NCBI GenBank assembly: GCA_965217895.1
Contig: CBDCJV010000002.1
Location: 4,256,001 to 4,320,000, forward strand
Length of the DNA: 64,000 bases
Direction: 5' to 3'
From: Waterburya sp.
Lineage (GTDB): Bacteria; Cyanobacteriota; Cyanobacteriia; Cyanobacteriales; Xenococcaceae
The position numbers and the translations under genes were made by a program. The first letter of the stretch is position 1. Each line of letters opens with the position of its first letter. Positions 1-17,084 of this stretch are shown in pieces. Under the pieces are notes generated by a model that was not told the origin of the DNA, did not search any database, and saw only the letters and a list, made by a program, of their open reading frames with translations.

Positions 1-481
1 TTTTACTAAAGCTGCCGTAGATGAAAAGGCAGACGATGAAGAATGGTTGAGAGCATTAGTGATGATCGTAGCCGACAAGCCTGCTGCTTCTTGGACAGAC
101 CAGGATGTAACTCGGTTTGAGATCGAATTAGCGGATTTAGTCAGAAAGTTTCAAAATCTGGAAGCTCTACAGAAAGAAACAACTGCTAAAGGTGAAGGGT
201 TTGAAGCTCGTCGCATTACCGTGACTCATGCAGATGGGCAGGAAACTCATCGTGTAGTTTGGGTTGATAACGAGCAGGAAAAACAGGTAGAGCAGTTAGT
301 AATAGAGGTTATGAAGGTTTTGCCACAAGACCCTCAATTGCAGCAAGCTGTACTAACTAAACTTACTGAAAGAATTTTAAATGCTTCTTCAGAGTCTAAT
401 AAAGAAATAACCAAGATTTCGAGGAAGCGCAAGGTTAAAGAAACTCAAACATCAAATAAATCTGAAAAAGCAGCAAAATAA
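1..481 (+). CDS. C-terminal end of a large ATP-binding protein, SspC-like (PT modification); 5' end lies outside the window
   Basis: Frame is open from base 2 (FTKAAVDEKADDEEWLRALVMIVADKPAASWTDQDVTRF). The W..L......KP...W.D.D...F pattern resembles SspC-type C-termini, and the gene lies upstream of sspD/sspFGH-like genes. Confidence 0.6.
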   Translation, partial: FTKAAVDEKADDEEWLRALVMIVADKPAASWTDQDVTRFEIELADLVRKFQNLEALQKETTAKGEGFEARRITVTHADGQETHRVVWVDNEQEKQVEQLVIEVMKVLPQDPQLQQAVLTKLTERILNASSESNKEITKISRKRKVKETQTSNKSEKAAK

Positions 482-556
482 TTTAAAAATTATTTTAGCA
501 ACTAAGGCTTTCTTGTATAGGAAAACAATAGAGACATGTGTTAAGGAATAATACTC

Positions 557-1288
557 GTGAAAATAGACGGTTTTATTGAGATTTTAGATAGATATTTTTT
601 GGATTTTATTGGTACAGTTATTCCAGGTACTGCGTTTATAACAGAAATTTATATACTTTTAAAACAGCCACTACTGTCTAATAAAATAATAGTATCAAAC
701 AGTGGAGCAACTTGAATTTTTTGCATCATCTTAGGATATATAGTGGGACACGCATTGAGTAGTATTGGAAATTACGTAATTATTGAACTTTTAGAACACT
801 TAAAAGCTCACCAATATACTAAATGGTTATTGCCAAGGTTTATCACCCCAAAAAAGCAGCTTTTTGAAAAAATACAAAAGCGAATAGATTACAAGCAATT
901 AGTTAGTCAAGCAATAAAGTATTTTTCTATTGAAGTAGAAGCAGAAAGTGATTTTAGTTCTTGGCGAAATATAGCAATGTCTTTAGCAGAAGATAATTCC
1001 TTAGCATATCGTTTTATGTTCCTTTCTTTAATGAATTTAGGTATAGCGACTAGTATTCTGCTAACAGATTTATTGTGGATTCTACTACATCTAATAAATG
1101 GTCGTTTTGGAATTAACCTTAATTTGCTTAATTTCAATTTGGTATCATTTATTTTAATTTTTTTAGTTAGCTTGCCATTTTTGGAAAGATACTATCAATT
1201 TTATAGATATTCTATGGAAGTTCCTTTCTCTAAAGCTCTAGTAAAGCTTAAAGAGCTAGAACAAACCTCCAATGAAAGAGATACCTGA
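557..1288 (+). pseudogene. Multi-pass membrane protein gene interrupted by an in-frame TGA at 713-715
   Basis: GTG at 557 follows AAGGA and reads MKIDGFIEILDRYFLDFIGTVIPGTAF...SGAT*IFCIILGYIVGHAL, in frame with ORF 743..1288. Hydrophobic segments lie on both sides of the stop. Confidence 0.65.
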
Positions 1289-3362
1289 CGATATTATGTC
1301 TGATGTGATCGCCTGTTTTCCGCAAATAATTAAATTGTGCCGTCAGAGTAAAGTCGGCAAGATTTTACCTGATGCCTTTTACATTCATATCAGCGCGATC
1401 GCAGAACTGGACGATCTTGTCATTGCTTATGAGGCTAAAGCTAGAGAGTTACTAGGCAAGAGAGACAATGACTACAATATTCTGAAATTTGGGTTGTCAA
1501 AGCCCCAAATATCTTATTTGTCCTATCCTAAATTCGAGTCAGATCCCCATCCTCGTCTGAAATCCAGCCTAATTGTCAATCTTCAAACTAAGGATATTGT
1601 TTATCGAGATTATACGGATTCTAAAAATCCCCCCATCCTGCACAGAAAAGAAACCTTCATCTCCAAACAGCACCATCTATACGATAAATTTAGTCACCTA
1701 ACTAAGTGCGAACAAGAAATTGGGTTACTCAAGCCTGCTAAACAGATTGGATTTCTTAAACAATGGCAGCAGTTTCTCGCTCTCAACCACATTCAATTTG
1801 AGGATCACTATTTAGCTTGCGCGATCGATAAGGCTGGCAATAACAACAAACTTCTGGAAATAGATCGTCATAAAGCAGCGATTGTTCGTAACGATCTGTC
1901 CCGTCCTGTAAAACTGGCTTTTGAGGCTAATTTGCTTTCAGATAAAGTCAGTTTTTTTGATTATGGGTGCGGTCATGGAGGAGATGTTAGCAGACTTACC
2001 GATCGAGGAATTGAGAGTGCAGGATGGGACCCCCATTACTTTTCAGAACATCCATTGAATTCGGCTGATGTTGTTAACGTCGGATACGTAATCAATGTCA
2101 TTGAAAATCTTGCCGAACGCAGACAAGCCTTAATAAATGCTTGGAATTTGACTAAAAAGGTTTTAATCGTCTCGGCTCAAGTATTGGTAAGTGATGCCAG
2201 TAGAAACTGGGTTGCTTATGGTGACGGAGTAGTGACAAGTCGCAATACCTTTCAAAAATATTTTGAACAGGAAGAACTAAAGCTTTATATAGATCAAGTT
2301 TTAGAAGTAGATTCAATTCCTTCTGCTTTGGGAGTATATTTTGTTTTTCGCGATCCGATTGAGGCTGAAAAGTTTCGTTCTTCTCGTTTTCGCTCTCGTG
2401 CTAGAACTCCTAGAGTTCAGCTAAGAGTTAATTACTTTGAGGAATATAAACATTTACTTGCTCCCTTGATGGAGTTTATGACCGAACGAGGTCGTTTACC
2501 CGTTAAAGGAGAATTGGATAGTGAATCAGAGATTAAAGCCAAATTCGGTAGCCTACGTAAAGCATTTAACTTAATACTGAAGGCGACTAGTGAAGATGAA
2601 TGGTCGGCGATCGCCGAAAAAAGAAGCCAGGAATTGTTAATTTATTTGGCATTGAGTAATTTTCATAAACGCCCCAAATGCAGACAGCTATCCTCAGACG
2701 TACAAGAAGATATAAAAGCATTATTTGGCAGCTACAAACAAGTCTGTACAGAAGCTGATGCCATGCTACTAAGTTTGGGCAACTTGGAAAATATCGCACG
2801 GGCAGCAAATGAAAGTTCGATTGGGAAAAAACTAACTAACTCATTACTCATTCATATCAGTGCTTTGGAACAGCTAGACCCGTTGCTGAGACTTTATGAG
2901 GGATGCGCTAGTAGAACTATTGGACGTTTAGAAGATGTCAACGTTATCAAATTCTATACTAGTAAGCCTCAAATTTCCTATCTTCATTACCCAAATTTCG
3001 ACGACGATCCCCATCCATTTTTGAAAACCAGTATGCAAATTAGGTTACGTGACTTGCGAGTATACTATCGCGATTATGAATTACAAGGCGACACGCCTAT
3101 TTTGCATCAGAAAGATCTATTAGTTACAGAGGATTACCCTGGCTACGAAAAATTTGCTAAATTAACAGCTCAAGAAAATAATTGGGATTTATTGAGTAAC
3201 TGGCAGCAAATCAGGTCTTATGGGGGTTGGCAAGCTTGCTTAGAGGAACATTGTGCCGAGCTTAAAGGTCATCGAGTCTACTTCCAAAATGATGCCGACC
3301 CCTATAAATTAAAGATTCTAAAATCTGGAATTCAGAAAAGGCGCAAACAAAACCAAGGATGA
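1272..3362 (+). CDS. DNA phosphorothioation-associated putative methyltransferase
   Basis: Central SAM motif FDYGCGHGGD, GWDPHY and VNVGYVINVIE, flanked by two copies of a KPQISYL.YP.F..DPHP...PILH.K domain; PT-locus context. Confidence 0.85.
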   Translation: MKEIPDDIMSDVIACFPQIIKLCRQSKVGKILPDAFYIHISAIAELDDLVIAYEAKARELLGKRDNDYNILKFGLSKPQISYLSYPKFESDPHPRLKSSLIVNLQTKDIVYRDYTDSKNPPILHRKETFISKQHHLYDKFSHLTKCEQEIGLLKPAKQIGFLKQWQQFLALNHIQFEDHYLACAIDKAGNNNKLLEIDRHKAAIVRNDLSRPVKLAFEANLLSDKVSFFDYGCGHGGDVSRLTDRGIESAGWDPHYFSEHPLNSADVVNVGYVINVIENLAERRQALINAWNLTKKVLIVSAQVLVSDASRNWVAYGDGVVTSRNTFQKYFEQEELKLYIDQVLEVDSIPSALGVYFVFRDPIEAEKFRSSRFRSRARTPRVQLRVNYFEEYKHLLAPLMEFMTERGRLPVKGELDSESEIKAKFGSLRKAFNLILKATSEDEWSAIAEKRSQELLIYLALSNFHKRPKCRQLSSDVQEDIKALFGSYKQVCTEADAMLLSLGNLENIARAANESSIGKKLTNSLLIHISALEQLDPLLRLYEGCASRTIGRLEDVNVIKFYTSKPQISYLHYPNFDDDPHPFLKTSMQIRLRDLRVYYRDYELQGDTPILHQKDLLVTEDYPGYEKFAKLTAQENNWDLLSNWQQIRSYGGWQACLEEHCAELKGHRVYFQNDADPYKLKILKSGIQKRRKQNQG

Positions 3363-3523
3363 TAATATTTTTTTCTCTAGAGTAAATTTTACTTTTACTT
3401 TAGGGAACTATTTAAGTAACCCTTATAGTTGGTATTCAAAAAGCCGTTAATGCAATTGGGACAAGAGTAGTATAGTAAACATATGCTGGTATTTTGAAAT
3501 CAGACCGTTATTTATAATTGAGA

Positions 3524-4324
3524 ATGAGTGAAAAAAAAGTTAGGCATGTATTAGGACTCTCAGGAGGTAAGGACTCAACTGCCTTAGCTATTTTGCTGCA
3601 TCAAGAAATTCCTGACATGGAATACTTTTTTTGTGACACTCATAAGGAATTACCCGAAACTTACGAATATTTAGATCGTATTAAGGCTCGCTTGGGCATT
3701 AAAATCAACTACTTAAGTGAAAAAAGAGGTTTCGATCATTGGTTAGCTCTTCACGATGGTCTATTGCCCTCGCCTCAAATGCGGTGGTGTACCATCAAAA
3801 TGAAAATTAAGCCTTTTGAAGAGTTTGTGGGCAATGATGAAGCAATCAGCTATATTGGCATTCGTGCTGATGAAAATCGTGATGGCTATCTATCTACTAA
3901 ACCAAATCTAAAGCCTGTATTTCCTTTTAAGGAAAGAGGATTAGTCAAAGCAGATATTATCCGCTTACTAGAAGACAGCGGTATTGGTCTACCCGATTAC
4001 TATCGCTGGCGCAGTCGCTCGGGCTGTTTTTTTTGTTTCTTTCAGCGTAAATATGAGTGGGTAATGCTAGCCCAAGAACATCCAGATTTGTTCGCTAAAG
4101 CAATTGAATATGAGCAGAATCATGCCGATGGTCGAACCTATACCTGGACACAGGGAGAAACGTTATCGGAACTTTTAGAACGTAAGGATGAAATTATTGC
4201 TAACCATGACAAGGCAATAAACAAAACTAAAAAAGCTGCTCCTAATCGTCCTTTAGCCGAAGCTTTAGAGTCAGTTTTGGATGACGAAGATGATGGTTTG
4301 CCCTGTTTAGCTTGTCATTTATAA
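3524..4324 (+). CDS. sspD: PAPS-reductase family PT modification protein (SspD/DndC-like)
   Basis: SGGKDS PP-loop, RWCT..MK, GIRADE, RSGCFFCFFQ, C-terminal CLACHL. ATG 3524 preferred over TTG 3518. Confidence 0.8.
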   Translation: MSEKKVRHVLGLSGGKDSTALAILLHQEIPDMEYFFCDTHKELPETYEYLDRIKARLGIKINYLSEKRGFDHWLALHDGLLPSPQMRWCTIKMKIKPFEEFVGNDEAISYIGIRADENRDGYLSTKPNLKPVFPFKERGLVKADIIRLLEDSGIGLPDYYRWRSRSGCFFCFFQRKYEWVMLAQEHPDLFAKAIEYEQNHADGRTYTWTQGETLSELLERKDEIIANHDKAINKTKKAAPNRPLAEALESVLDDEDDGLPCLACHL

Positions 4325-4327
4325 CTT

Positions 4328-6187
4328 ATGAATACTTACCCTTCTTCTATTAAATCTAAATGGATTGATTTTCTCAGACATTACGGGCCAATTCCTCGCA
4401 ATGACAATATGTATGATGAGGTTATTCAACGAACCTTAAAAAGAAAAAAAGTTGACCCTATTATTTTTGATACAGAATATCTTAATGAGTTAATTGAAAA
4501 TTTTCAAGGAAGTTCGCCTAAATCAGTAATTTTAACGGGAACGGCTGGAGATGGTAAAACATTTTGTTGTCGTCAGATTTGGGAAGCATTAAACGGTCAA
4601 TCCGAAGATTGGGAAAAAGACCAAAAAGTTTATCAATTAGAAATTGGAAATAAACAACTATTCGTTGTTAAAGACCTAAGCGAATTAGAAGATCATCGTA
4701 AAACGAACTTATTAACTAAAATGGCTGACTCTATTGTTCAGCCTTCTTCTTCAGATATTTATCTAATTGCAGCTAATGATGGACAACTAATAGAAGCATG
4801 GAAAAAAGCTCAAGATACGCCTAGCGTAAAAGAAGTTCGTCAAGTTATTGAAGAGTTATTAGTTACTGATACCAAAGAAAAATCTAATTACAATTTACAT
4901 TTATATAATCTCAGTCGTTTAAGTGCTGCCAAAATTGTCCTCAAAATCCTAGATGCAGTATTAAATCATTCTGGTTGGCAGGAATGCCATCAGTGTTCTT
5001 ATTACAACCCTCCTAGCCAGAACGAAAAATGTCCTATTTGGGAAAACAAAATAAGACTTGAAGGTACAGAGAATAACAAAACGCTCCAAAGCAGATTAGT
5101 CGATCTTCTTGAATTAGCTGAACTTAATGAAATGCACCTTCCTATTCGGCAATTACTTTTGCTTATTGCCAATATTTTACTTGGTCATCCTGATGGTAAA
5201 GATAAACTTTTAAACTGTAGAAAAATTCCTGCTATTGTTGGACAAGGAACCAGTCATAATGCCAGCCTATATCGCAATATTTTTGGTGCAAATTTATCTC
5301 TTAGAAAAAGGACTTCTATCGAAGTTTTTAAAGTATTGAATTATTTTGGTATAGGAACTGAAACCAGCAATCAAATTGATAATATCCTTATTTTTGGCTC
5401 TGACGATCCTAACTTTAAAGATGACTATAACTCTTTGATTGAAACCGATACTTTTTATGGTGCATATCGTAATTTTTATTTAAAACAAAAAAGCTATCTT
5501 GAAGGAAATTACTCAGAAGATAGAAATGATTTTTTAGTAATGCTTCAATCTCAAAGGCAAAGACTATTTTTTGTTATTTCACTCGAACAAGAATTAAGCC
5601 TTGATTTCTGGAATTTAACAGTATTTCAATATGCAGGAGAATATTTAAATGATGTCTATCGAGTCTTAAAAAATAACCAACAAATTTCTCAAATTATAAT
5701 TGGACGTTTAATCAGAGGACTTAATCGTATTTTTACAGGAATGTTGGTTAAAAATCAAGATAAATTAATTATTGCAACGTCAGGAAGTTACTCTCAAGCA
5801 AGAATCAGTAAAGTTTATGAAGATGAAATATCCGTTAGAAAAAAAAGAGGTGAAGAAGTTACTATAGAACTAGAAACAAACCAAAATAAACTAAATTTAG
5901 TGGTTTATCTTTCCTCGAATCAAGAATTGTTTCCCATTAAATTAGGTCTTAATTTAACTCGCTATGAATACCTAAGTAGAGTAGCAGAAGGTACATTACC
6001 TAGCAGTTTTTCTAAAGAGTGTTATGAAGACATATTAGCTTTTAAAACTCAAGTTTTACAACAAATTGAACAAAGAAAACGTCTTGAAGGGGAAGAGGAA
6101 ATAGACTCGGAAAATTATATGTTACTTCAATTACTTGAAGTCAAAGATGAAATTGCTCATTCTGTTCAAGTAGAAATTAAGATATGA
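4328..6187 (+). CDS. sspF: P-loop NTPase, SspF/DptF-like PT-dependent restriction subunit
   Basis: Walker A GTAGDGKT, VKDLSE, IAANDGQL, YNLSR; starts 3 bp after sspD and overlaps the next gene by ATGA. Confidence 0.7.
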   Translation: MNTYPSSIKSKWIDFLRHYGPIPRNDNMYDEVIQRTLKRKKVDPIIFDTEYLNELIENFQGSSPKSVILTGTAGDGKTFCCRQIWEALNGQSEDWEKDQKVYQLEIGNKQLFVVKDLSELEDHRKTNLLTKMADSIVQPSSSDIYLIAANDGQLIEAWKKAQDTPSVKEVRQVIEELLVTDTKEKSNYNLHLYNLSRLSAAKIVLKILDAVLNHSGWQECHQCSYYNPPSQNEKCPIWENKIRLEGTENNKTLQSRLVDLLELAELNEMHLPIRQLLLLIANILLGHPDGKDKLLNCRKIPAIVGQGTSHNASLYRNIFGANLSLRKRTSIEVFKVLNYFGIGTETSNQIDNILIFGSDDPNFKDDYNSLIETDTFYGAYRNFYLKQKSYLEGNYSEDRNDFLVMLQSQRQRLFFVISLEQELSLDFWNLTVFQYAGEYLNDVYRVLKNNQQISQIIIGRLIRGLNRIFTGMLVKNQDKLIIATSGSYSQARISKVYEDEISVRKKRGEEVTIELETNQNKLNLVVYLSSNQELFPIKLGLNLTRYEYLSRVAEGTLPSSFSKECYEDILAFKTQVLQQIEQRKRLEGEEEIDSENYMLLQLLEVKDEIAHSVQVEIKI

Positions 6188-7770
6188 ATAAAAATATTTT
6201 ACCTCGTCCTCAACAAATATCAGATCAATTTGAAATGTGGGTTGATGAAGCCATTTGGGGACATCGCCTTTATGACGAACAAACACCTTGGTTAACTCTG
6301 TTAGAATTTTTGGGTATTCTTCAATCTCAAATTGAAATTGGTAAAGGATTTATAGAAGAAGAAAATCAGCTAAATTATTTAAACTATTATTATTATTCTC
6401 GTCTTTCTTTGCGTAATATATTATTTAATAATCCTTATTTGGAAGCTATTAGTGATGAATTTTTTAACGATGATGACTGTTGGCAAAAATGGGAATTATA
6501 CATGATTAAAAGTTGTGGTGGTATTAATCCTCCCGTAGACTTTAGTTATTTAAAAGAGCGGTTTTCTTCCTTTAAAGATTTTGTAAAAATTGTCCATTTT
6601 CTTCAAACTAATGCTATTGAAGGCGATAGTAATAAACGATGGACTTCTAAATTTATTTTTCCTTATGGTCCAGATTGTTTGTATTCTGATTTAAGAGTTA
6701 AAGGGACAAATTTTAGTCAAGATCGTCGTTTTTTTGCAAGAACAGGAGAATTACTCTATTTAATGCTTTGTCGCAGTGGGAAAAGAGAAGAATTAAAAAC
6801 TGCTCTTATTAACTTAAGAATTGTTGCAGAACCAGATAATAAACATCAAACTTCAAAATGGAATCATCTCGTTGTAATGTTACAACCAGAATCTGAACTT
6901 AAAAAGGATAATACAAGAAAAAGTGGTAATCCTCCCTATCTTCCATATAAAGAACTTCCTGAATATACTGCTTTAGCTGAAGATTGGCTAAATATTTTAC
7001 ATTACAACTTACCAGATTATGATGCTATTCCCTATCTAGTTACTCTAACGGGACTTCATCTAGTTATTTACTTATTAAAAAGGGCAAAAGCTGTTTTAGA
7101 AATTGCTGAATCTCCTCAATTTGTTTTGGAAATTGTTGCTCCAAAAAAAACCGTGGTGCGTGATTTAGCTTCTAGCTCTTTTTTAGAGAATAATAACTTA
7201 TCTTACCAAGCAATAGAAAATTATATTCTAAGTATTACGACAACATTAGACTGGGAACAGTGTAAAACTTCTTCTAATGCTGTTCACGATACTTTAGAGC
7301 TTATCCAAAAAGGATTTGCTTGGAATTTAAAAAAAGCCGGTAAGATACCAGAAAATTCCTCGCCTGATGAAATTCTTAAAATATTCCGTGAAAAAGCAAT
7401 TTCTCGCCATAAGCAGCATATTGGCAACTGTCATAGTAGTTGGTCAAAAGAAATTGGACTAGCTTCTAGTAGGGGAAGTCGCAGAATTCGTTATGCTCCT
7501 ACTGATTCACTATTAAAAACCTTAGTCTTATGTACTGTACCGCATCGCTTAGAATTTCAAAATTTCCTAGCTAAATTATCAGAAACATACGGTTTTATTA
7601 TTGGAGACCGCCAAGCTACCAAATTTATTGAAACAGGGGAAGCAGATCGAGAGGCGTTTGCTAGTAATGCAGAACGTTTAGAACAGCGTCTTGCCAGTTT
7701 AGGCTTATTGAAACGACTTTCAGATGCTTGTGCCTATGTACAAAATCCTTTTGCGGTGGAGTCAGTATAA
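6184..7770 (+). CDS. sspG: SspG/DptG-like PT-dependent restriction subunit
   Basis: Coupled between the F-like and H-like genes; C-terminal L..LGLL.RLSDAC.YV motif of the DptG/SspG type. Confidence 0.7.
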   Translation: MNKNILPRPQQISDQFEMWVDEAIWGHRLYDEQTPWLTLLEFLGILQSQIEIGKGFIEEENQLNYLNYYYYSRLSLRNILFNNPYLEAISDEFFNDDDCWQKWELYMIKSCGGINPPVDFSYLKERFSSFKDFVKIVHFLQTNAIEGDSNKRWTSKFIFPYGPDCLYSDLRVKGTNFSQDRRFFARTGELLYLMLCRSGKREELKTALINLRIVAEPDNKHQTSKWNHLVVMLQPESELKKDNTRKSGNPPYLPYKELPEYTALAEDWLNILHYNLPDYDAIPYLVTLTGLHLVIYLLKRAKAVLEIAESPQFVLEIVAPKKTVVRDLASSSFLENNNLSYQAIENYILSITTTLDWEQCKTSSNAVHDTLELIQKGFAWNLKKAGKIPENSSPDEILKIFREKAISRHKQHIGNCHSSWSKEIGLASSRGSRRIRYAPTDSLLKTLVLCTVPHRLEFQNFLAKLSETYGFIIGDRQATKFIETGEADREAFASNAERLEQRLASLGLLKRLSDACAYVQNPFAVESV

Positions 7771-10700
7771 TGAAGTCTTTAAAATTAATTGGCAAAGTAA
7801 CAACACAATATCTTAAAAGCTTTAGTTCAACAGAGGAAGAAGAAACCGACGATGGTGTGGCTCGTTTTCTGTTAGATTGCCTAACCCCAGAGCAAGTTGC
7901 TGAAATCTGTCGTCAAATTCTTAAAGATCCTCATTTATCATCTCAAATTAAGATTCAAGTTCCCCGCACCCTTATTCATAATTTTGATGATTTAACTACA
8001 GAAATCATGACCGATGAGCGAACGGTTCATTTACGTCATGCCTCTTGTGACAAACCTATTTTATTGCTTGCTAATACTAATGACGACCAAGGACAATCTT
8101 TACAAGACATTACCTGTATTGGCGCAAGTGAACTAAAAGCTGAAAATGATATCTGGGTTGAAGTTGCTAGTCGAGATATACCCTTATCAGAGGAACAGAT
8201 TAAGTATTGGCAAAAAGCTTTAAAAGGATTACAGGCTGCTATAAATTTGAGCTTAGATAATCTCGCTCAGTATATTGTTGATACTCATTCCAGAATTGAA
8301 AATGAAAGTGAACCAATTATTAACGCATTGGGATGGGCTTTGCCATCTCTAAAAATTCCCCGTGATTCTAGTTATTTTGAAGCTATCCCTGAAAACAAAC
8401 GAGGTCATTATCAGCGTTGGCAAAGTCTTTTTCAACAAGCAATTTCCAAGCGAGGGTGTTACTTAATAAAGCAAATGCCTAATCTCAAACCTATAGAAGA
8501 AAAAGAGCTAGAAAATGCTTTTACCAAAGCCAAAGAGCAGATTCCAAAAATAGCCCATTCAACTATTGATGAGTTTATTCATAGTCCTTCTGGTTGGCAT
8601 CAACAAGCATCTAATCTGGCTCAATTTGAATGGGAAAGAGATAATATTGATTCTATCTTTATTGGATTAAAACCTCCCAAAACAGATTTAGCTTCTTTAA
8701 CTATTCAACTTTTTGAAGATGAATATCCTGATACTTTAACAGAGGCTGAAGAACAATATTTAAAAGCCCTTAAAAAGCGTTCTGCTACTAAAAATCCCAA
8801 TGAAGATGACGAAAAATTTTATGAAAATTATCGACAATCTTTAGAACAAAACCCAAAATTAAAAGCTAAATGGGATAAATTTGTTTATGGACAACCAGTT
8901 GAATGTTATGATTTTCTTATTGGATTAATACAAGCTTTTGAAAGACTATATGCTCAATCTGAATCTAAAGAAGGACAACAAACATTAATTATCAAAACCC
9001 AAAAAGGTGTTCGTAAAAGTAAATGGCTTGAAGAACTTAATGTAGAAGTTGGTCTTTACTTTTGTACGAGATATAGAGGGATTGAAAAACTTACCTCGCC
9101 AGAAATTGAATGGGAAACCCATTGGTTATTCAAGTACGACGAGCTATTAGAAGAAAACCAAAAACGACAGCAAAAATATAAGGAAAGTAAATCTGTTAGT
9201 AAAGCAGCCACAGAAATCAAATTCTATGTCGAGCTTCACTCTTCATCTTCAGATAATCCTAAAATTCAATTAATTTGGAAATGTAACCCGAATGCTATCG
9301 GACTAGAACTTCGTCAAGACTTAGAAAGACTTACTGATTCGGCTAAATCAGCCTTTATTCAATCTCAAATAGCACGGGAATTAGTTAGTAAAAAAGGTCG
9401 TCTTCAAGGAATATCTTTAAATGATGTTGGAACGTTAATGGCTGCTTTTGGACAAGATAGAGGTTCTTTAATTCCTAAATATGAGCCGAAACTTGACCTA
9501 GCTAAAACCTTTCCTAAAAAGATTAAAAACGCAGTTGAAGAAAAACGCTTGTCCTCAGAAGCTGCCGAACAAATTAATAATCTTTGGCATAAATTTACCG
9601 CAATATATCAAAAAGCCCTAAAAAGTTGGCTCAGCGAAGAAGGAATTTATAGTAAAAAGTTCTTAGAACAAGGTCAAGCCTACCAAGAATTATTAGAAAC
9701 ACTTTTAAACAATGCTTGTGGAGATCGAAACCGAATTGAACTTTATCAACCTTTACTCAATTTAGGATGTATTCAAGTAGAAAGAGGAAATTCTGCTGCT
9801 ATTATTGCTCCTTGGCATCCTTTAAGACTAGTATCCATAGCTGTTAAGGCTCGTCAAATATCAGGATTGCTCAAATATATTCTCCGTACCGAACAAGTTG
9901 AATTTGGGGATTCTCGTCTTTTCTTTTCCGATTTGACCACAGAATTAGCTCATCCTTACTATCCCGAAGTTGCTGTAGGATATCAAGGTTCTCAACCGAT
10001 TCTTTTATCTTTATCTGATTCAGTTAATGATTATAGTTTATTAGAACAACCAACTTGGGCAGTAAAAAATCAAATTACTAATGAAGACCCCACTGAAGCA
10101 GCTTCCAAATTAATTAAATTAGTACAACGATATTTAGAATTACTTCCCCATGAAAAAACTAATTTAAGTTTAGTTCTTTATCAATGTGATTCTATTAAAC
10201 TACCCCAAGCAGTTGTTAATCAATTAGCTAAATTACAAGAAAATCAAGAAGAATCACGTTGTCATATTATTTTGCGACATCGAGAATCAGAAAAACTTAG
10301 TCGTTTATACGAACAAATGATTGAAAGTTCTGATGCAGATCCAGATACTTTTATTGCCAGTGAAGCTTCACAAGATTTTATGGCAAAACTTCGGATCAGT
10401 GTTATTTCTGACTCAAGTTCAATTAATAATAGCAGCGAAGGAAAATCTGCCGATCTTGTTTTCCTACAAGATGTTATCTCTAGAAATGCTCAGGTAGTTT
10501 GGCAAGCTTCACCGATTGAAAAAACAACTCCCCATTTATTAGATCATGTACCACCAAGATGGGCAAGAAAACGCCCTGTTGCTAAAGATGAATTAAAATC
10601 AACGGTTTATTTGGTTTGTCCTAGTCAACCACAAGAATCTAAAAATTATTTAGATGCAATTTATAGTGTGATTGAAGGACAAGAGCTATCTCCTGAAAAA

Positions 10701-13082
10701 TATTTCCTTCCTGCACGACAAATTTCTTTTCAAAATGATACTATCAAAACTGTATTTGAAGAAGTCCATCGTCTGGGAGAATGGGTTGTTAATTATGATG
10801 ATTTATTAGAAAGACGACAACTTGTCAATCAAGGAGTACAAGTTATTCGTTATCAACAACATCGTACTGATGAGCGCAATCTATTAGTTTCTTCTCAAGT
10901 TCCTTTGAATTTATTACAAGTCCTAATTAAACGGCGATTAGAATCATTAAATTTAAATCTTGACGAGCAAGAATTAAAAGATTTATCTCAACGTTTTCTT
11001 GATGAAGCCAATGAATTATCGGGAGATATTGTTCTTAGAGCAGCTAAATGCGGTCATTTTGTAAGCGAACTAATTGGTGTAGTTTTGAGTAAATCTTTAA
11101 TTAGATCAGAACTAAATCATAGTGATGCTTTAGGATGGTATTTTTTAGATGATTATGCTACATGGTTAGGGCAAAAAGAAGGACAAATTGCTGATATTTT
11201 AGCAATCAGCCCTCAAATAATAGATGAGAAGCCTGTTTTAAAAATTATTATTTCAGAAGCTAAATATGTTATTGCTTCTGGTATAGCTGATGCTAGAAAA
11301 AAATCACAAAAACAGCTACGAGATACTGTACAGCGTATTGCTAATGCTCTTTTTATTACTCCAGGCCGTTTAGATCGTGACTTATGGTTATCTCGTTTAG
11401 GTGATTTAATGCTAGAAGGCATTGAATTTAGTTCTCAATCTTCTATTTCTCTCGAACAATGGCGTGAAGAAATCCGTTATGGTCAAATTGAGATTGATTT
11501 ATCGGGTTACTCTCATGTTTTTGTTTCTGGACCTAATGATACCTCTGTTACCAGCGAACAAATTGTTATTCCTAAAGTAGAACGATGTTTTCAAGAAATT
11601 TTTAGTCGTGGAGATGTAAGACAATTAATTCTGGCTTATTACTCTGGAAAATCATTATTAACTGTTCGGGAAAAATTAGGAGATGAAAAACCTTGGGCTA
11701 TTTCAAAGCCTCAATTTCCAGCCGAGCGAGTTATTTGGACTGACACTATTACAGAGGAAATAAAAGCAACTGACACTGAACAAGAATTAACTTCAAAACA
11801 ACCAAAACAAACCAATAATTCTTCTAGTCCTGATGAATCTAATCGAGCTTTGCCAACTACAACAATATCAGAGCAACAATCTGTTATTCAACCAACAAGC
11901 AATGAATGGACAAGTCTAACTTTAAGTACTTGGCTCAATCATAATTCTACCTCCTCTACCGATAAAACAGAAGAAGAGCAATGGCTCAATGATGTTGTTA
12001 ATTCTCTTCGTCAAGCCTTATTAAGCTACGATCTTCAAGCCAAAGTTTTAGAAAAAAGATTAACTCCTAATGCAGCTTTAATTCAATTTCAAGGCTCAGA
12101 TCGTCTCAATATTTCTGATATCGAACGTCGTCGTTCTTCATTATTAACAACTCATGGTTTAAATGTAATTAATATCTCTGGACAACCAGGTAAAATTGTT
12201 ATTTCTGTTGCTCGTCCTCAACGTCAAGTTATTTCTCTGCAAGAAGTATGGCAGAAACGTAAACTCAATCGTTCAAATACAGATATTAATCTTAGTTTTG
12301 TGATTGGAATTAGAGAACTTGATGGAGAAATACTATACCTAAACCTAGGAAGTGAATTTGAAAAGTTGCAAAGTCATGCACCTCATACTTTAATTGCTGG
12401 AACAACTGGAAGTGGTAAATCTGTTCTGTTAACAAATCTGTTAATTGATGCTTGCGCCACTAACAGTCCAGACAAGCTGAAAATATATCTTATTGATGCT
12501 AAACAAGGGATAGATTATTCTGCCTTAAAAAAACTTCCCCATCTTCAAAAAGGAATTATTGTCGAGCGAGAGCATGCAATAAATATTCTGGAAGAAGTTG
12601 TGGAGGAAATGGAGCAAAGATATTTTAAATTTAGCCAAGCAAATGCTAAGAATCTATTTGTCTATAATCAAAAAGTTTCCCCAGAAAAACAACTACCTGT
12701 TTTATTAGTTGTTCATGATGAATTTGCTGACTGGATGTTAATTGATGAATATAAAGATGCTGTTTCTTCTGCTGTGCAAAGATTGGGAGTTAAAGCAAGA
12801 GCAGCTGGAATTCATTTGATTTTTGCAGCTCAACGTCCTGATAATCAAGTGTTTCCCATGCAACTAAGAGATAATCTAGGTAATCGTTTAATTTTGAAAG
12901 TTGAAAGTGTAGGAACGTCAGAATTTTCTTTGGGACAAAAAGGAGCAGAAAATCTTTTAGGAAAAGGCCACTTGGTTGCAAAATTATATGGAGAATCAGA
13001 CCTGATTTATGCTCAAGTTCCTTTTCTTTCTGATGATGATTTTGATTTAGTAACTAGAGCAATTCAGCAAGATTATGATTAG
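7770..13082 (+). CDS. sspH: Large protein with C-terminal FtsK/SpoIIIE ATPase, SspH/DptH-like
   Basis: PHTLIAGTTGSGKS Walker A, VVHDEFAD Walker B, ARAAGIHLIFAAQRP, GAENLLGKG; possible nuclease-like ADILAI...ISEAK. Start placed at ATG 7770 (TAATG overlap with sspG). Confidence 0.75.
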   Translation: MKSLKLIGKVTTQYLKSFSSTEEEETDDGVARFLLDCLTPEQVAEICRQILKDPHLSSQIKIQVPRTLIHNFDDLTTEIMTDERTVHLRHASCDKPILLLANTNDDQGQSLQDITCIGASELKAENDIWVEVASRDIPLSEEQIKYWQKALKGLQAAINLSLDNLAQYIVDTHSRIENESEPIINALGWALPSLKIPRDSSYFEAIPENKRGHYQRWQSLFQQAISKRGCYLIKQMPNLKPIEEKELENAFTKAKEQIPKIAHSTIDEFIHSPSGWHQQASNLAQFEWERDNIDSIFIGLKPPKTDLASLTIQLFEDEYPDTLTEAEEQYLKALKKRSATKNPNEDDEKFYENYRQSLEQNPKLKAKWDKFVYGQPVECYDFLIGLIQAFERLYAQSESKEGQQTLIIKTQKGVRKSKWLEELNVEVGLYFCTRYRGIEKLTSPEIEWETHWLFKYDELLEENQKRQQKYKESKSVSKAATEIKFYVELHSSSSDNPKIQLIWKCNPNAIGLELRQDLERLTDSAKSAFIQSQIARELVSKKGRLQGISLNDVGTLMAAFGQDRGSLIPKYEPKLDLAKTFPKKIKNAVEEKRLSSEAAEQINNLWHKFTAIYQKALKSWLSEEGIYSKKFLEQGQAYQELLETLLNNACGDRNRIELYQPLLNLGCIQVERGNSAAIIAPWHPLRLVSIAVKARQISGLLKYILRTEQVEFGDSRLFFSDLTTELAHPYYPEVAVGYQGSQPILLSLSDSVNDYSLLEQPTWAVKNQITNEDPTEAASKLIKLVQRYLELLPHEKTNLSLVLYQCDSIKLPQAVVNQLAKLQENQEESRCHIILRHRESEKLSRLYEQMIESSDADPDTFIASEASQDFMAKLRISVISDSSSINNSSEGKSADLVFLQDVISRNAQVVWQASPIEKTTPHLLDHVPPRWARKRPVAKDELKSTVYLVCPSQPQESKNYLDAIYSVIEGQELSPEKYFLPARQISFQNDTIKTVFEEVHRLGEWVVNYDDLLERRQLVNQGVQVIRYQQHRTDERNLLVSSQVPLNLLQVLIKRRLESLNLNLDEQELKDLSQRFLDEANELSGDIVLRAAKCGHFVSELIGVVLSKSLIRSELNHSDALGWYFLDDYATWLGQKEGQIADILAISPQIIDEKPVLKIIISEAKYVIASGIADARKKSQKQLRDTVQRIANALFITPGRLDRDLWLSRLGDLMLEGIEFSSQSSISLEQWREEIRYGQIEIDLSGYSHVFVSGPNDTSVTSEQIVIPKVERCFQEIFSRGDVRQLILAYYSGKSLLTVREKLGDEKPWAISKPQFPAERVIWTDTITEEIKATDTEQELTSKQPKQTNNSSSPDESNRALPTTTISEQQSVIQPTSNEWTSLTLSTWLNHNSTSSTDKTEEEQWLNDVVNSLRQALLSYDLQAKVLEKRLTPNAALIQFQGSDRLNISDIERRRSSLLTTHGLNVINISGQPGKIVISVARPQRQVISLQEVWQKRKLNRSNTDINLSFVIGIRELDGEILYLNLGSEFEKLQSHAPHTLIAGTTGSGKSVLLTNLLIDACATNSPDKLKIYLIDAKQGIDYSALKKLPHLQKGIIVEREHAINILEEVVEEMEQRYFKFSQANAKNLFVYNQKVSPEKQLPVLLVVHDEFADWMLIDEYKDAVSSAVQRLGVKARAAGIHLIFAAQRPDNQVFPMQLRDNLGNRLILKVESVGTSEFSLGQKGAENLLGKGHLVAKLYGESDLIYAQVPFLSDDDFDLVTRAIQQDYD

Positions 13083-14271
13083 AAATATGTTTGAAAAATC
13101 TAGTTTCTTATCTAAATCAATTTACCTTGATTATCATTCTACTACTCCTGTAGACCCTAGAGTAGCAGACCGAATGCTATATTATATGACTACTGCATTT
13201 GGTAATGCTAGCAGTACAGACCATATCTACGGCGATGAAGCAGCAAAAGCTGTATCTGAGGCACGTCGTCAAGTTGCTGAATTAGTCGGTGCATCAGAAA
13301 GAGAAGTGATTTTCACCTCTGGGGCAACAGAAAGTATTAACTTAGCTATTCAAGGAACGGTATTCAAGCACATTGATAACAAGAGTAAACCTCGCATTGC
13401 TTTCTCCCTACTCGAACACAAAGCAGTACTAGATACCTGTCAGGCGATCGCCAAAAAAGGATTAGCAGATATTGTTAGTCTTCGAGTTGATTCCCAAGGC
13501 AGACTAGACCTAAAGTATCTAGAACAAGTCTGTAAGCAGGGATTATCTCTGCTGTGTGTTATGGCTGCCAATAATGAAATCGGTAATATTTATCCAGTTC
13601 AAGAAATTGGTAACATAGCTCAAAAATATGAGATTTCTTTTCTTTGTGATGCTTCTCAGGCAGTAGGAAAAATACCAATTGATTTTGAACAATGGGGAAT
13701 TACTTATCTAGCCATCTCTGGTCACAAATTTTATGCACCCAAAGGAGTAGGCGCATTAGTGGTTAGAAAAGGACATCAACTAGAACCAATTATTTTTGGT
13801 GGCGGTCATCAAAAAGGAATGCGTTCTGGAACGCTTAATGTCCCTGGCATTGTTGGTTTAGGGGAAGCCTGTAAGTTAAGGCAATTAGAGATGATAGAAG
13901 ATGAAAAAGCGATCGCCCTACTGCGAGACAAATTGCAGAATTTGCTTCAAGAAAAAATTCCCAACTTAATAGTAAACGGCGATCTAGACTCTCGACTAGC
14001 AGGCAACCTGCATATTTCTATCCCAGGCATACCGAATAGTCCCATTATTGCTAGAATCCGCCATTGCCTCGCTATTTCGACTGGTTCCGCCTGTTCTTCT
14101 GGGGTTGCAGCACCCTCTCATGTTTTGCGTGCTATGAACTTATCTGAAGAATTAATCGAAGGTTCACTAAGAATAGGATTAGGCAAGTTCACCACTAACC
14201 GAGAGATAGAAAAATCAGTCAAAATTCTTTCTGATGCAGTCGAACAAGTTTTTCAAGCAATGCACATTTAA
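13075..14271 (+). CDS. Cysteine desulfurase (DndA/SspA/IscS-like sulfur donor)
   Basis: YLDYHSTTP, FTSGATES, SGHKFYAPKG (PLP lysine), STGSACSS (catalytic Cys); overlaps the sspH stop. Confidence 0.92.
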   Translation: MIRNMFEKSSFLSKSIYLDYHSTTPVDPRVADRMLYYMTTAFGNASSTDHIYGDEAAKAVSEARRQVAELVGASEREVIFTSGATESINLAIQGTVFKHIDNKSKPRIAFSLLEHKAVLDTCQAIAKKGLADIVSLRVDSQGRLDLKYLEQVCKQGLSLLCVMAANNEIGNIYPVQEIGNIAQKYEISFLCDASQAVGKIPIDFEQWGITYLAISGHKFYAPKGVGALVVRKGHQLEPIIFGGGHQKGMRSGTLNVPGIVGLGEACKLRQLEMIEDEKAIALLRDKLQNLLQEKIPNLIVNGDLDSRLAGNLHISIPGIPNSPIIARIRHCLAISTGSACSSGVAAPSHVLRAMNLSEELIEGSLRIGLGKFTTNREIEKSVKILSDAVEQVFQAMHI

Positions 14272-14405: not shown

Positions 14406-14451
14406 CACTTTGGGGTAGTGGGGGTCATGGGTTCAAATCCCGTCGCTCCGA
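14406..14451 (+). tRNA. 3' fragment of tRNA-Pro(GGG) serving as att site; not a complete tRNA
   Basis: CACT-TTGGGGT-AGTGG (anticodon GGG), GGGTC, T-arm ATGGG-TTCAAAT-CCCGT, acceptor 3' strand CGCTCCG-A. No D-arm or 5' acceptor strand upstream. Confidence 0.88.
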
Positions 14452-14495
14452 TACAATTCAAACCTTCTCTGAGAGAGGGCTTAACCGTTGTTAAT

Positions 14496-14592
14496 TGTGC
14501 ATTAACAAATTATTTGTCATCAGTAACAGATTACTGTCGTTTTAACATATTGAGTGTCATCGATAACAATTTGTTTGGTGACAAACAAATTT
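14496..14592 (+). mobile_element. Left end of a type V-K CAST (Tn7-like) transposon
   Basis: TGTGCATTAACAAATTATTTGTCATCAGTAACAGATTACTGTCGTTTTAACATATTGAGTGTCA: TGT terminus plus three TAACA-N-TGTC(A/G) TnsB-type repeats (14502-14519, 14523-14539, 14542-14559); 62 bp downstream of GTT at 14431-14433. Confidence 0.82.
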
Positions 14593-14628
14593 AAACCCTC
14601 ACAACTTAAATATTGAATATTATAGTTG

Positions 14629-14680
14629 CGGAGCGACGAGATTTGCTTTCATTCATTTTGAGGTGCGGATTGAATAAAAA
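14629..14680 (-). CRISPR. Delocalised tRNA-homing crRNA unit: degenerate repeat ending TGAAAG plus a 17-nt spacer
   Basis: Minus strand reads ...CTCAAAATGAATGAAAG-CAAATCTCGTCGCTCCG. The spacer (14629-14645) matches 14434-14450 CAAATCCCGTCGCTCCG at 16/17, directly after a GTT PAM. Single unit, no array. Confidence 0.82.
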
Positions 14681-14785
14681 TGATTAAGCGTTTTTTTTAT
14701 TATACAAAGCGATCGCCATATCTTGAGCTTTTAGGGATAAAATCTTGCTTATTCGGTTTTATATTTAATTCTGCCTACCTACTTA

Positions 14786-14830
14786 TTTAGCAATCCTAAA
14801 TCGGAAAACCAATAATTTAGAATTGCTGTA
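14786..14830. repeat. Short inverted-repeat (MITE-like) remnant
   Basis: TAGCAATCCTAAAT...ATTTAGAATTGCTG imperfect inverted repeat, preceded by CCTACCTACTTA, which resembles the end of the 35010-35113 element. Confidence 0.5.
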
Positions 14831-14870
14831 CCTATTTTTTCCTTCACTCTAAACTTGTCTTTTTGTCACT

Positions 14871-17084
14871 TTACAATAATTTATCTAGCGTGATTGGTAA
14901 ATCTCGTACTCGCTTACCAGTGGCATGATGAACTGCATTGGCAATGGCTGCTGCTACTCCAACTATCGCTATTTCGCCGATTCCCCTAGCACCGAGAGGA
15001 TTGGCATGATAATCTGGTTCACCGCAGAAGATCGCTTCAATTTCGGGAATGTCGGCATTGACTGGTACAAGATATTCTCCTAAGTTAGCGTTGACATAGT
15101 TACCATAACGCGAATCAAGATAAGTATGCTCCTGTAGTGCCATGCCGATACCGCCAACAACTCCACCAATGGTTTGAGACTTGGCTGTTTTAGGGTTAAT
15201 AATGCGTCCCACATCTACAGCAGAAACTACCCGCGCTACGTTAATATCTCCTAGTAGTTCATCAACCCGCACCTCCACAAAAGTAGCCCCAAAAGAGTGC
15301 ATTGAAAATTTTTCTTTTTCCGAACCTGGTTCTGATGTCGCCTCGGCTTCAATAGATTCCTGGTTAGCTTGGGCAAGAATTTCAGCATAGCTTAAGCTTT
15401 GGGATAAGTTTTGCCGATCGAATATTTTTCCATCTTCAGCTTTTAAGTCGTCTTGTTTAGTTCTAGCCAGAGGAGAATCTATCTGTTTAGCTAATGCTAA
15501 AGCCTGCGATCGCGCTTTTTTACAAGCAGCTTGAACCGCCGAACCGACTGAAGCTACTGTCATCGAACCACCGTGAGCAGGGGCAAAAGGAAAATTAGAA
15601 TCGCCTAGCTCGAAAGAAATGCGATCACTTGGTATACCTAAAGCATCTGAGGCAATTATGGTCATTGTGGTATACGTTCCAGGACCCATATCAGAAGCAG
15701 CACTTTGTACCACCGCCGTACCATTCCTTAAAATACGGGCTTTAGCAGTAGCTGGTCTGCGTACCATTGGGTAGGTGGAAGTTGCCATACCGTAACCGAT
15801 TAGAATGCCGTTTTCTTGTTGCGATCGCGGTTGAGGATTGCGTTGATTCCAGCCAAATGCTGATGCACCCTGCTCATAGCATTCTCTTAAGGCTTTTGAC
15901 GACCAGGGTAAATTAGATTCTGGGTCTTGTTCGGCATAATTAATCTGTCTCAACTCAAGGGGATCGATTCCCAATTCGTAAGCCAATTCATCTAGTGCCG
16001 ACTCCAAAGCATAAACTCCCTGTGCCTCTCCTGGCGCACGCATAAAGGTAGGTGCAGAAATATCTAGCTTTGCCAGTCTGTATTTAGTCTGCGCGTTAGG
16101 ACAGGCATACAAAAAACGAGAAGCATTAAGTACGTTTTCGGTGTAGGTTTCAAACTGTGCCACCTCACCTGTCGCTTCATGAATAATCGAAGTTAAAGTA
16201 CCATCTTTATTAGCTCCCAAAGCAACGCGCTGAGTTGTATAAGGACGATGCCCCGTCATGCTAAACATCTGCTTGCGAGATAAAACCAGTTTGACAGGAC
16301 GATTAACAACTTTGGCAGCAATTGGCGCGATCGTAGTTTGCTGCCAGATACGTCCCGCACAGCCAAAAGCCCCGCCGACAAAAGGCGAAACGACTTCAAC
16401 ATTGTCTTGGGGAATGCCAAATACTGAACCTAAATGCTGTTGAACGCTTTTAACCCACTGAGTTTTGTCATAAATTTTCAACTTGTCCCCCGACCAGACA
16501 GCAATAGTTGCATGAGGTTCGATGGGATTATGATGCTCTGTGGGGACTGTATAATTAGCATCAATACTAACTTCAGCATTAGATAAGGCAGATTCTGGAT
16601 TACCGCGAGACTTGTCTGCTTCACTTTCGGGTATGGTCACTTGACCGTTTGCTTTGGCTTTATGTACACTGACGCTGTGTTGCTGTTTTTGATACTCAAC
16701 TCGAATTAAAGAAGCAGCTTGTTCGGCTTGTTCTAGAGTTTCGGCAACCGTAACAGCTACTGGTTGCCCATAAAAATAAATGCTATCCGTATAGAGAGTG
16801 TGGGGATACTCTCCCGATGGTGCGGTGGTAATTTTCTGTTCTGGCGGAATTGGCCTAAATGGCAGCTTAGGGGCATTTTGATAAGTAATAATCGCAATTA
16901 CTCCTGGTACTGCCTGAGCCTTTCGGGTATCGATGTTAGCAATACGTCCTTTGGCAACTGTACTAGTAGTTATAACTCCATGAGTTACATTTTCAACAGG
17001 AAATTCAGCAGCGTATTTCGCACCGCCCGTAACTTTAAGCTTTCCCGTGACTCGTTTTTTAGCCTGACCGATAATTTGATTCAT
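14871..17084 (-). CDS. paoC: Xanthine dehydrogenase-family molybdopterin-binding subunit (PaoC/YagR-like)
   Basis: KVTGGAKYAAE, HNPIEPHA, VGGAFG, MRAPGE, GARGIGEI, C-terminal RVRDLPITLDKLL. Confidence 0.88.
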   Translation of the reverse strand: MNQIIGQAKKRVTGKLKVTGGAKYAAEFPVENVTHGVITTSTVAKGRIANIDTRKAQAVPGVIAIITYQNAPKLPFRPIPPEQKITTAPSGEYPHTLYTDSIYFYGQPVAVTVAETLEQAEQAASLIRVEYQKQQHSVSVHKAKANGQVTIPESEADKSRGNPESALSNAEVSIDANYTVPTEHHNPIEPHATIAVWSGDKLKIYDKTQWVKSVQQHLGSVFGIPQDNVEVVSPFVGGAFGCAGRIWQQTTIAPIAAKVVNRPVKLVLSRKQMFSMTGHRPYTTQRVALGANKDGTLTSIIHEATGEVAQFETYTENVLNASRFLYACPNAQTKYRLAKLDISAPTFMRAPGEAQGVYALESALDELAYELGIDPLELRQINYAEQDPESNLPWSSKALRECYEQGASAFGWNQRNPQPRSQQENGILIGYGMATSTYPMVRRPATAKARILRNGTAVVQSAASDMGPGTYTTMTIIASDALGIPSDRISFELGDSNFPFAPAHGGSMTVASVGSAVQAACKKARSQALALAKQIDSPLARTKQDDLKAEDGKIFDRQNLSQSLSYAEILAQANQESIEAEATSEPGSEKEKFSMHSFGATFVEVRVDELLGDINVARVVSAVDVGRIINPKTAKSQTIGGVVGGIGMALQEHTYLDSRYGNYVNANLGEYLVPVNADIPEIEAIFCGEPDYHANPLGARGIGEIAIVGVAAAIANAVHHATGKRVRDLPITLDKLL

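Follow-up and report, generated by a model that had tools for sequence, protein, structure and literature searches.

A decayed type V-K CAST left end beside a half tRNA-Pro gene in Waterburya, probably from a lineage with a predicted natural single-guide homing RNA

Which element left a transposon end and a tRNA-matching spacer beside a fragment of a tRNA-Pro gene in this cyanobacterial genome, and how would that element have found its target? The window, i.e. the whole stretch of 64,000 nucleotides that was analysed, corresponds to C2:4256001-4320000 (contig CBDCJV010000002.1) of a near-complete 5.29-Mb genome of Waterburya sp. Our main reading, to which we give a probability of roughly 0.8, is that the locus preserves the left end, the homing spacer and the last 15 cas12k codons of a type V-K CAST that is likely dead and came from a lineage with a predicted natural single-guide homing RNA. 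The features on which this reading is built are collected in Table 1.

Table 1. Features at and around the CAST remnant, in window positions.
Feature	Position	Strand	Basis
sspD, sspF, sspG, sspH, sspA/dndA: right part of a phosphorothioation defence island ending at attR	3518..14271	+	PADLOC
3' half of tRNA-Pro(GGG) from the anticodon arm on; attR core of the 33-kb tyrosine-integrase island	14406..14451	+	
GTT PAM	14431..14433	+	sequence
17-nt anchor protospacer CAAATCCCGTCGCTCCG	14434..14450	+	spacer match 16/17
Hairpin past the tRNA end, common to the attL side and many relatives; no CAST part	14460..14482	+	
TTAAT, expected left copy of the 5-bp TSD (putative)	14491..14495	+	sequence
Left end of a V-K CAST; terminus TGTGCA against a consensus of TGTACA, TnsB-type repeats (three to four)	14496..14592	+	
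17-nt anchor (homing) spacer against tRNA-Pro(GGG)	14629..14645	-	one mismatch, position 7
GAAAG and A/T-rich stub	14646..14660	-	presumed 3' arm of the tracrRNA-spacer hairpin of relatives
Stretch between cas12k stop and tracrRNA promoter, ending at a conserved ACCT before a -35-like hexamer	14661..14683	-	
Last 15 codons and stop of cas12k, KAQDMAIALYNKKNA then stop	14684..14731	-	
One arm of a dispersed multicopy repeat; presumed deletion junction 2	14732..14786	+	
paoC-like molybdoprotein gene, flank	14871..17084	-	Pfam MoCoBD/Ald_Xan_dh_C

An initial annotation, made from the letters alone, had proposed a GTT PAM at 14431-14433, a TGT terminus 62 nt after it and three TAACA...TGTC(A/G) repeats. 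All of these are present: TGTGCA begins at 14496, 62 nt after the PAM, TAACA recurs at 14503, 14524, 14543 and 14564 and TGTC(A/G) at 14515, 14535 and 14555, which makes three complete repeats and, beyond those proposed, a fourth degenerate one. The minus-strand spacer that it had matched to the tRNA at 16/17 was borne out as well, with a single mismatch and with GAAAG (14650-14646) directly preceding the spacer (14645-14629). Anchor units have a 17-nt spacer after GAAA(G/C), a GTN PAM and, in the available part of PMC9938897, 46-82 nt to the left end, and the unit in the window, with 16/17, GTT and 62 nt, conforms to this.

Could such a likeness arise by chance, or mark the end of a non-CRISPR element? 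The strict end motif has six occurrences in the 5.29-Mb genome, all at CAST-like ends (6/6, two of them one duplicated sequence), and in a genome scan with a left-end PWM the window end scored 35.9, outranked only by one duplicated end sequence. With up to 2 mismatches allowed, the protospacer has three matches genome-wide, namely the intact tRNA, the window fragment and the window spacer. GAAAG followed by a match of at least 14/17 was seen in 0/20,000 dinucleotide-resampled copies of the 300 nt 3' of the tRNA fragment. The rarity of the motif, the three protospacer matches and the outcome of the resampling therefore argue that the remnant is not due to chance. TGT...TGTC repeats are general to the Tn7/Tn5053 transposase family, and this genome also has a Tn7 at glmS, both of which would suit the end of a non-CRISPR Tn7/Tn5053 element. 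Against this, the evidence of spacer, PAM, spacing, cas12k tail and full V-K homologue points the same way, so that the chance and non-CRISPR readings are refuted and their remaining probability is negligible. That the window holds a real V-K CAST left-end scar, likely dead, we regard as almost certain.

The window end was compared with complete natural V-K relatives. A genome of the same genus (G006), the best DNA match among 60 relatives, carries a full element at an intact tRNA-Pro(GGG) with the same spacer and the same 62-nt spacing. This element comprises tnsB/tnsC/tniQ, a MerR regulator, an array, a tracrRNA and cas12k (NF038191; one internal stop), and AAAAG stands outside both of its ends as the TSD; it supports the earlier proposal of a CAST homing scar with its own tRNA-Pro spacer at the expected distance. 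Over 14496..14592 the left ends of the window and G006 are identical at 77/97 positions (57/66 over a shorter alignment), and a further locus, L049, aligns over the whole of 14496-14660 with 134/170 identical. The anchor spacer is identical in G006, L049 and L152. Left-end matches at E<=1e-6 occur in 67/400 other genomes of the order. It had been said that the scar would be refuted if the same end stood in relatives without a CAST; among 28 other listed tRNA-Pro(GGG) loci the end is present at one, that of G006, with its full CAST. A scan for the anchor unit gave four matches in the genome-contig collection (L047, which is the same as G006 and was counted once, L049, and two chance matches in coding DNA) and three in the metagenome-contig collection (L152, L153, which is the same as L049, and one chance match). 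In L049/L153 an IS with a short duplication sits inside the hairpin that joins a second tracrRNA to the tRNA-Pro spacer, and the distance from PAM to end is 52 nt.

Regarding the subgroup, V1 and V2 are told apart in the accessible part of PMC12416283 by a spacing of ~62 nt, a CvkR/MerR or Arc_1 regulator and tracrRNA length. The 62-nt spacing of the window together with MerR_1 and a tracr core of ~195 nt in G006 places the element in V1. Following the parts available of 10.1101/2021.02.06.429022, PMC9938897 and PMC12416283, the window shares with V1 (ShCAST/AnCAST type) the GTN PAM, the 17-nt tRNA spacer, the PAM-proximal left end and the 62 nt that are the V1 average; likewise, the intact relative has the V1 order of left end, anchor, array, tracr, cas12k and MerR regulator, and a 5-bp TSD. 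It differs from V1 as described there in that only ~240 bp are left in the window and its target is an attR half-tRNA, and in that the anchor of its lineage is no free truncated repeat but is preceded by a full second tracrRNA copy and a hairpin in cis. V2, in the same part of PMC12416283, belongs to the same subtype, but the 62 nt of the window and the MerR and ~195-nt tracr cores of its relatives show that it is not V2. The scar alone is ordinary, as decayed V-K CASTs are common (130/282 cas12k genes without a nearby tnsBCQ operon in the part seen of 10.1101/2021.02.06.429022); what matters more is the lineage.

Array, tracrRNA and cas12k had all been described as missing. This holds for the first two, as neither a CRISPR array nor a tracrRNA lies between the cas12k tail and the left end in the window, but not entirely for cas12k, of which 15 codons remain at 14684-14731. 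The stretch 14661-14732 aligns with the CAST of another relative (G017), from the cas12k stop through the tracr promoter, with 81% identity over 75 columns (E 6.7e-14). The C-terminal ends, each followed by a stop, read KARNIALALYNKKNQA in G017, LALGLYNKNKNA in G006 and KAQDMAIALYNKKNA in the window. A profile of the cas12k ends of 12 relatives placed 14658-14731 first in the genome (E 4.9e-6), above the two known cas12k ends, and the tail scores 93 and 46 against G017 and G006 and 36 against the CAST resident elsewhere in the genome. In an unrelated public run (X3), a contig matching 14697-14732 extends into cas12k-like sequence. The remnant itself has no full-length cas12k, the NF038191 matches being elsewhere in the genome, and no tnsB, tnsC or tniQ, the nearest set (C2:4504856-4507941) belonging to an element at tRNA-Phe; no tracrRNA was found near the window, where the tracr model instead matches three other places of the genome. 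On the window, Rfam gave only a weak T-arm match.

In the case of the target, the tRNA T-arm and acceptor named in the initial annotation match in sequence, but they belong to a 3' half only, which is the attR of a 33-kb island with the intact gene upstream. ARAGORN makes no tRNA call within the window because only this 3' half is present. The intact tRNA-Pro(GGG) lies at C2:4237340-4237413 and is followed by an integrase-like ORF, labelled from its sequence and position. A direct repeat of 77 columns, its copies 33,038 bp apart, links the intact tRNA side to the window fragment, and intact tRNA and integrase at one end with a 3' tRNA duplicate at the other is the pattern of a tRNA-integrated island. 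A related island in G031 has the same break point and allele pattern with different cargo, and no CAST end follows its fragment. On the direct repeat and the break point shared with the G031 island, the tRNA copy in the window is judged to be the island attR. By the usual integrase mechanism, the fragment in the window would presumably be the native 3' half of the tRNA. The spacer matches this fragment at 16/17 and the rebuilt intact tRNA at 15/17, owing to a T/C allele. Dating the CAST against the island by this allele was tried and rejected, as L049 has a T spacer beside a C-allele tRNA. One contig of another public run (X5) has an attR-like flank and then a left end. The locus is a case of a CAST end nested with an integrase island at a single tRNA, and it shows how far such an element can shrink. 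The island as a whole (window 1-14271 and C2:4237340-4256000) carries integrase, relaxase-like and helicase-like genes and the Ssp genes (SspD, F, G, H, A).

From the order of the homologous parts we infer two deletions, one at 14660/14661 and one at 14732. For the first junction we rely on the assembly and on these parts having the right order and orientation. In contigs of a public run that is probably the source sample, 14421-14661 is identical, and the records listed for that same run have no cover of 14662-14748; among the contigs listed none bridges 14661, and those of two runs (X1, X2) stop at different places, a gap in such cover being no proof of anything. No RNA run is among those listed as containing the window sequence. 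At the second junction, the dispersed repeat of 14732-14786 has 20 other matches in the genome, several of which extend to the left by the part missing in the window. This repeat also has matches in many genomes of the genus, and its longer copies look like a small inverted-repeat element. The predicted TSD letters, TTAAT, stand at 14491-14495, but a right end followed by TTAAT, sought in the whole genome by regex and PWM scans, gave none. Searching for an empty site by synteny found none, with the flanks of tRNA-Pro, pepN and paoABC differing even in the closest relatives.

Two candidates for further parts of the element were rejected. An orphan right end at C2:3483363 (minus) has the flank TTTGT and follows a tRNA-Leu fragment, and was taken as another scar and not as the partner of the window end. 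The paoABC genes were considered as cargo and found no support; orthologues of the paoC-like gene occur in G023 and G019 without a CAST end motif in the 20 kb covered. As further observations on these two places, the orphan right end is about 90 nt from the tRNA-Leu 3' fragment and the integrase of a small prophage-like element, and its copy at C2:127, where the contig begins, may reflect overlapping assembly. Beside paoC, window 14817-14882 resembles the first part of another paoA-like gene found in G023, so that a second pao cluster was apparently lost there.

A genome-wide search for cas12k and tnsB/tnsC/tniQ, as had been suggested, found a complete set in a CAST of a separate lineage. This V-K CAST at tRNA-Phe is complete (C2:4477487-4508270; L001, L004, L009), with a 691-aa Cas12k, 54-nt spacing and a tracrRNA of ~290 nt; the spacing and the long tracrRNA are V2-like, following the available part of PMC12416283. 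Its presence raises the question of whether the remnant works in trans, with the resident CAST using the spacer or the end, or with the TnsB sites giving target immunity at the att site. Intact cas12k (691 aa), tnsB, tnsC and tniQ are 207-237 kb away, and the first TnsB site of the window end is near consensus. Yet the genome scans gave no partner right end, and no minus-strand promoter match was found, which is a weak test (promoter scans of the window and of L047 gave chance-level results). Pairing of the window stub with the 3' end of the resident tracrRNA is predicted at -7.1 kcal/mol, against -20.7 kcal/mol for the resident's own anchor repeat. The resident Cas12k is 42-45% identical to the clade described below and falls outside it, with its 54-nt spacing, and the window terminus and spacer have one transition mutation each. 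Since neither a right end nor a promoter match was found, we consider it unlikely that the remnant is used in trans and would give this only a very small share of the probability.

Several observations concern this resident CAST and the other CAST parts of the genome. Its traits are V2-like though the host appears non-Nostocales, V2 having been reported as confined to Nostocales. Its cargo includes an apparent type I-D cas operon with cas1/cas2 (label from ORF sequences). Its end flanks mismatch, GCATT (C2:4477482-4477486) against ATAAG (4508266-4508270); an earlier insertion, some 67 nt from the PAM, would suit the right flank, and the element may be a hybrid of two insertions. A second decayed V-K left end lies at C2:2549182 (minus, L002) beside a 3' tRNA-Phe fragment and retains an anchor spacer, two repeats, a tracr remnant and a cas12k C-terminal fragment, in the same pattern of attR and CAST end as the window. 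The Tn7-like tnsA/tnsB/tnsC genes beside glmS are at C2:2077070-2083098.

What, then, preceded the homing spacer before the first deletion? In the G006 element the array and the left end are separated by a second tracrRNA copy, which passes without a break into a short hairpin, followed by GAAAG and the spacer. The closest homologues and about 20 further loci have a full second tracrRNA copy immediately ahead of their homing spacer. The tracr P8 hairpin lies directly before the spacer hairpin in 3/3 other tRNA-Pro(GGG) elements (G006, L049 and, partial, L152), and in 17 of the best 29 left-end homologues a tracrRNA 3' end is found 130-255 nt inside the end, the rest being canonical or degraded. 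The closest homologues of the window end, spacer and cas12k tail (G006, L049, L152, G017) are all of this fused type. The fused layout itself is absent from the window, where a 10-nt stub remains, and the position and composition of 14646..14660 fit the arms of the fused-type relatives; we infer that 14646-14660 is the stub of a fused guide. In this lineage the spacer sits at the end of a second tracrRNA copy and is no free truncated repeat-spacer, and descent of the window from a fused-guide lineage is likely, an assignment in which we have good confidence.

A tracr profile built from 9 copies recovered this layout repeatedly. The 56 near-full tracr copies were classed into 20 fused (nearby end and GAAAG) and 36 controls; loci were chosen by a tracr match together with a spacer or an end, the hairpin being no selection criterion. 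In all fused loci (20/20) the spacer has a target with a GTN PAM and no more than 2 mismatches (0-2). The linker between tracrRNA and spacer folded better than its shuffles (p<0.05) in 14/20 fused loci against 1/36 controls; the controls include four fused loci (L130, L049, L096, L148) that the end-motif rule placed there, and the lone significant control is L148. The linkers of G006 and L124 have no predicted fold alone, and four more were non-significant. When the 7 nt at one end of each of 19 distinct linkers were set against the 7 nt at the other, 87% were standard pairs, against 65+/-3% with shuffled partners (0/5000) and 35-63% when slid, with several pair types per position; this shuffle test overstates the effect, as the linkers are A/T-rich and related. 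The hairpin duplex is 7-12 bp, many loops are 3-4 nt and some reach about 25 nt. The shortest linkers are 15-17 nt, which leaves no room for a terminator and a promoter between tracr and spacer. The 5' arm of the hairpin starts at the position of anti-repeat 2 of the main copies, directly after the P8 stem-loop. In G006 the anti-repeat of the main tracr pairs with the array repeat at -12 kcal/mol. All this agrees with the pairing of tracr and crRNA at two sites given for V-K in PMC9486595 (part available).

These second copies could still be less than they appear. The window could be an ordinary V-K scar with a canonical truncated repeat-spacer whose anchor crRNA acts in trans with the main tracrRNA, and the second tracr copies could be duplication debris or a terminator-like hairpin. 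This would suit published V-K systems, in which a truncated repeat of ~12-13 nt and a 17-nt spacer lie away from the array (10.1101/2021.02.06.429022 and PMC9938897, parts available), as well as the partial tracr remnants in G017 and beside tniQ in the window's own genome and the non-fused anchors among the end homologues (L095, L118, L120). Against this, the second copies have their full length, retain both the CTTTC anti-repeat 1 and P8, and are conserved across at least 6 families and many spacers. The arm before GAAAG pairs with a partner of its own in cis, often without the G-rich consensus that the main tracr needs. At two loci (L156, L167) no full tracrRNA was found apart from the fused copy, which comes immediately behind cas12k. 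We therefore consider the ordinary-scar explanation improbable. As for the remnant beside tniQ, it comprises the 5' two-thirds of a tracrRNA (C2:4504697-4504829) just downstream of that gene, on the strand opposite the tns genes.

The grouping of the copies adds to this. Within a locus, main and fused copies are 59-78% identical, and fused copies mostly group with fused copies across hosts and tRNA targets. Since main and fused copies mostly group by type in this way, the second tracrRNA copy is judged to be old and maintained. The fused systems form one Cas12k clade of 13/19 proteins with a FastTree support of 0.925 in a midpoint-rooted tree of author-chosen loci, from which 6/25 loci with too little cas12k were left out and in which L156, although fused, is labelled otherwise by the end-motif rule. 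A phylum-wide search for the pattern of P8 and GAAAG gave 22 matches in 19/401 genomes; 15 without a tracr match were dropped, and the 7 loci with one comprise 6 of the fused type (one of them new, L195) and 1 main copy. L156 and L167 may stem from recombination between two tracr copies, and may be homing-only.

A separate doubt concerns the word single. A fused precursor might be cut in the hairpin loop to give a private two-piece tracrRNA:crRNA, in which case the dedicated homing guide would be the same and the label of a single guide wrong. V-K crRNAs are processed near the duplex by an unknown nuclease, according to the available part of PMC9486595, and loops of up to about 25 nt occur. 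Many loops, on the other hand, measure 3-4 nt and resemble the GAAA tetraloop that engineered Cas12k sgRNAs contain (PMC11906591, part available). Cutting appears to us unlikely, somewhat less so than the ordinary-scar explanation. That the lineage makes a single-molecule homing guide is likely, although we hold it a little less firmly than the descent of the window.

The following history would account for the locus. In intact relatives, the cas12k-proximal tracrRNA would pair in trans with the array crRNAs, while the second, diverged tracrRNA copy would fold on its own 3' extension to form repeat:anti-repeat duplex 2 in cis. One molecule would thus also carry GAAAG and the 17-nt tRNA spacer, and homing would need neither the array nor trans pairing. 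Cas12k with such a fused guide would have recognised the T-arm of tRNA-Pro(GGG), and TniQ/TnsC/TnsB would have placed the element so that its left end came to lie 62 nt downstream. A tyrosine-integrase island would have recombined at the anticodon loop, leaving the native 3' half-tRNA and the CAST end now 33 kb from the rebuilt tRNA; CAST insertion and island recombination may have come in either order. The deletion at 14660/14661 would have taken the array together with the two tracrRNA copies, a stretch of about 0.95 kb in G006, and the deletion at 14732, ending in the dispersed repeat, the rest of cas12k, the cargo, tnsBCQ and the right end.

Two known single guides offer a comparison. Engineered Cas12k sgRNAs consist, in the available part of PMC11906591, of the tracr 3' end, a duplex of 8-10 bp, a GAAA loop, the repeat and the spacer, and in the fused lineage the parts come in this order too, with a duplex of comparable length (7-12 bp); it differs from them in being natural, genome-encoded and, as predicted, tied to homing. 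The S. pyogenes Cas9 tracr-L (10.1101/2020.05.21.102756, part available) is likewise a genome-encoded single-molecule guide of a class 2 effector. It serves Cas9 autoregulation, in the part of that source available, and is a long form of the only tracrRNA, whereas here a duplicated tracrRNA, Cas12k and transposon homing would be involved.

Regarding earlier descriptions, our literature search found no duplicated or fused tracrRNA described in V-K; Saito 2021, the primary V-K homing paper, Strecker 2019 and bioRxiv supplements were outside this search. A single tracrRNA upstream of the array, with the truncated repeat-spacer standing apart, is the arrangement given in the available parts of PMC9938897, PMC12416283, PMC9486595, PMC11406308, 10.1101/2021.08.16.456562, PMC11906591, PMC11656645, PMC10293859, PMC10761935, PMC10734277 and 10.1101/2023.03.03.530964. 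The supplements of PMC11906591, in the parts available, make no mention of terms for a duplicated or fused guide. Dataset 3 of PMC12416283, as far as available, has one tracrRNA column, and its row 5 has a tracrRNA 37 nt from the anchor spacer and no array, such a locus thus being catalogued without remark; neither tRNA-Pro protospacer allele appears in the cell text listed. The fusion may have been described earlier in Saito 2021, Strecker 2019 or bioRxiv supplements, and this is the main risk to novelty.

The widest form of our proposal is that in a clade of cyanobacterial V-K CASTs the tracrRNA was duplicated and one of the copies became joined to the homing spacer, giving a natural Cas12k sgRNA that was retargeted to many tRNAs (Pro, Leu, Arg, Asn, Val, Ser, Thr and others). 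At the level of the scaffold, homing would thereby be kept apart from array-guided jumping, some members having only this guide, with the window as the stub of one and the arrangement not yet in print; taken as a whole, we would put this proposal at even odds. A dedicated fused tracrRNA copy would be a concrete and directly testable answer for one clade. A fused guide also raises the question of how a new 17-nt spacer enters such a gene. In addition, about 20 naturally evolved Cas12k sgRNA scaffolds are predicted, some with 3-nt loops, for CAST engineering. As a last observation, the cargo of the intact G006 CAST includes two very large Tc-toxin-complex-like genes with SpvB/TcdB_mid/RHS and TcA domains (Pfam; L041:850-16080).
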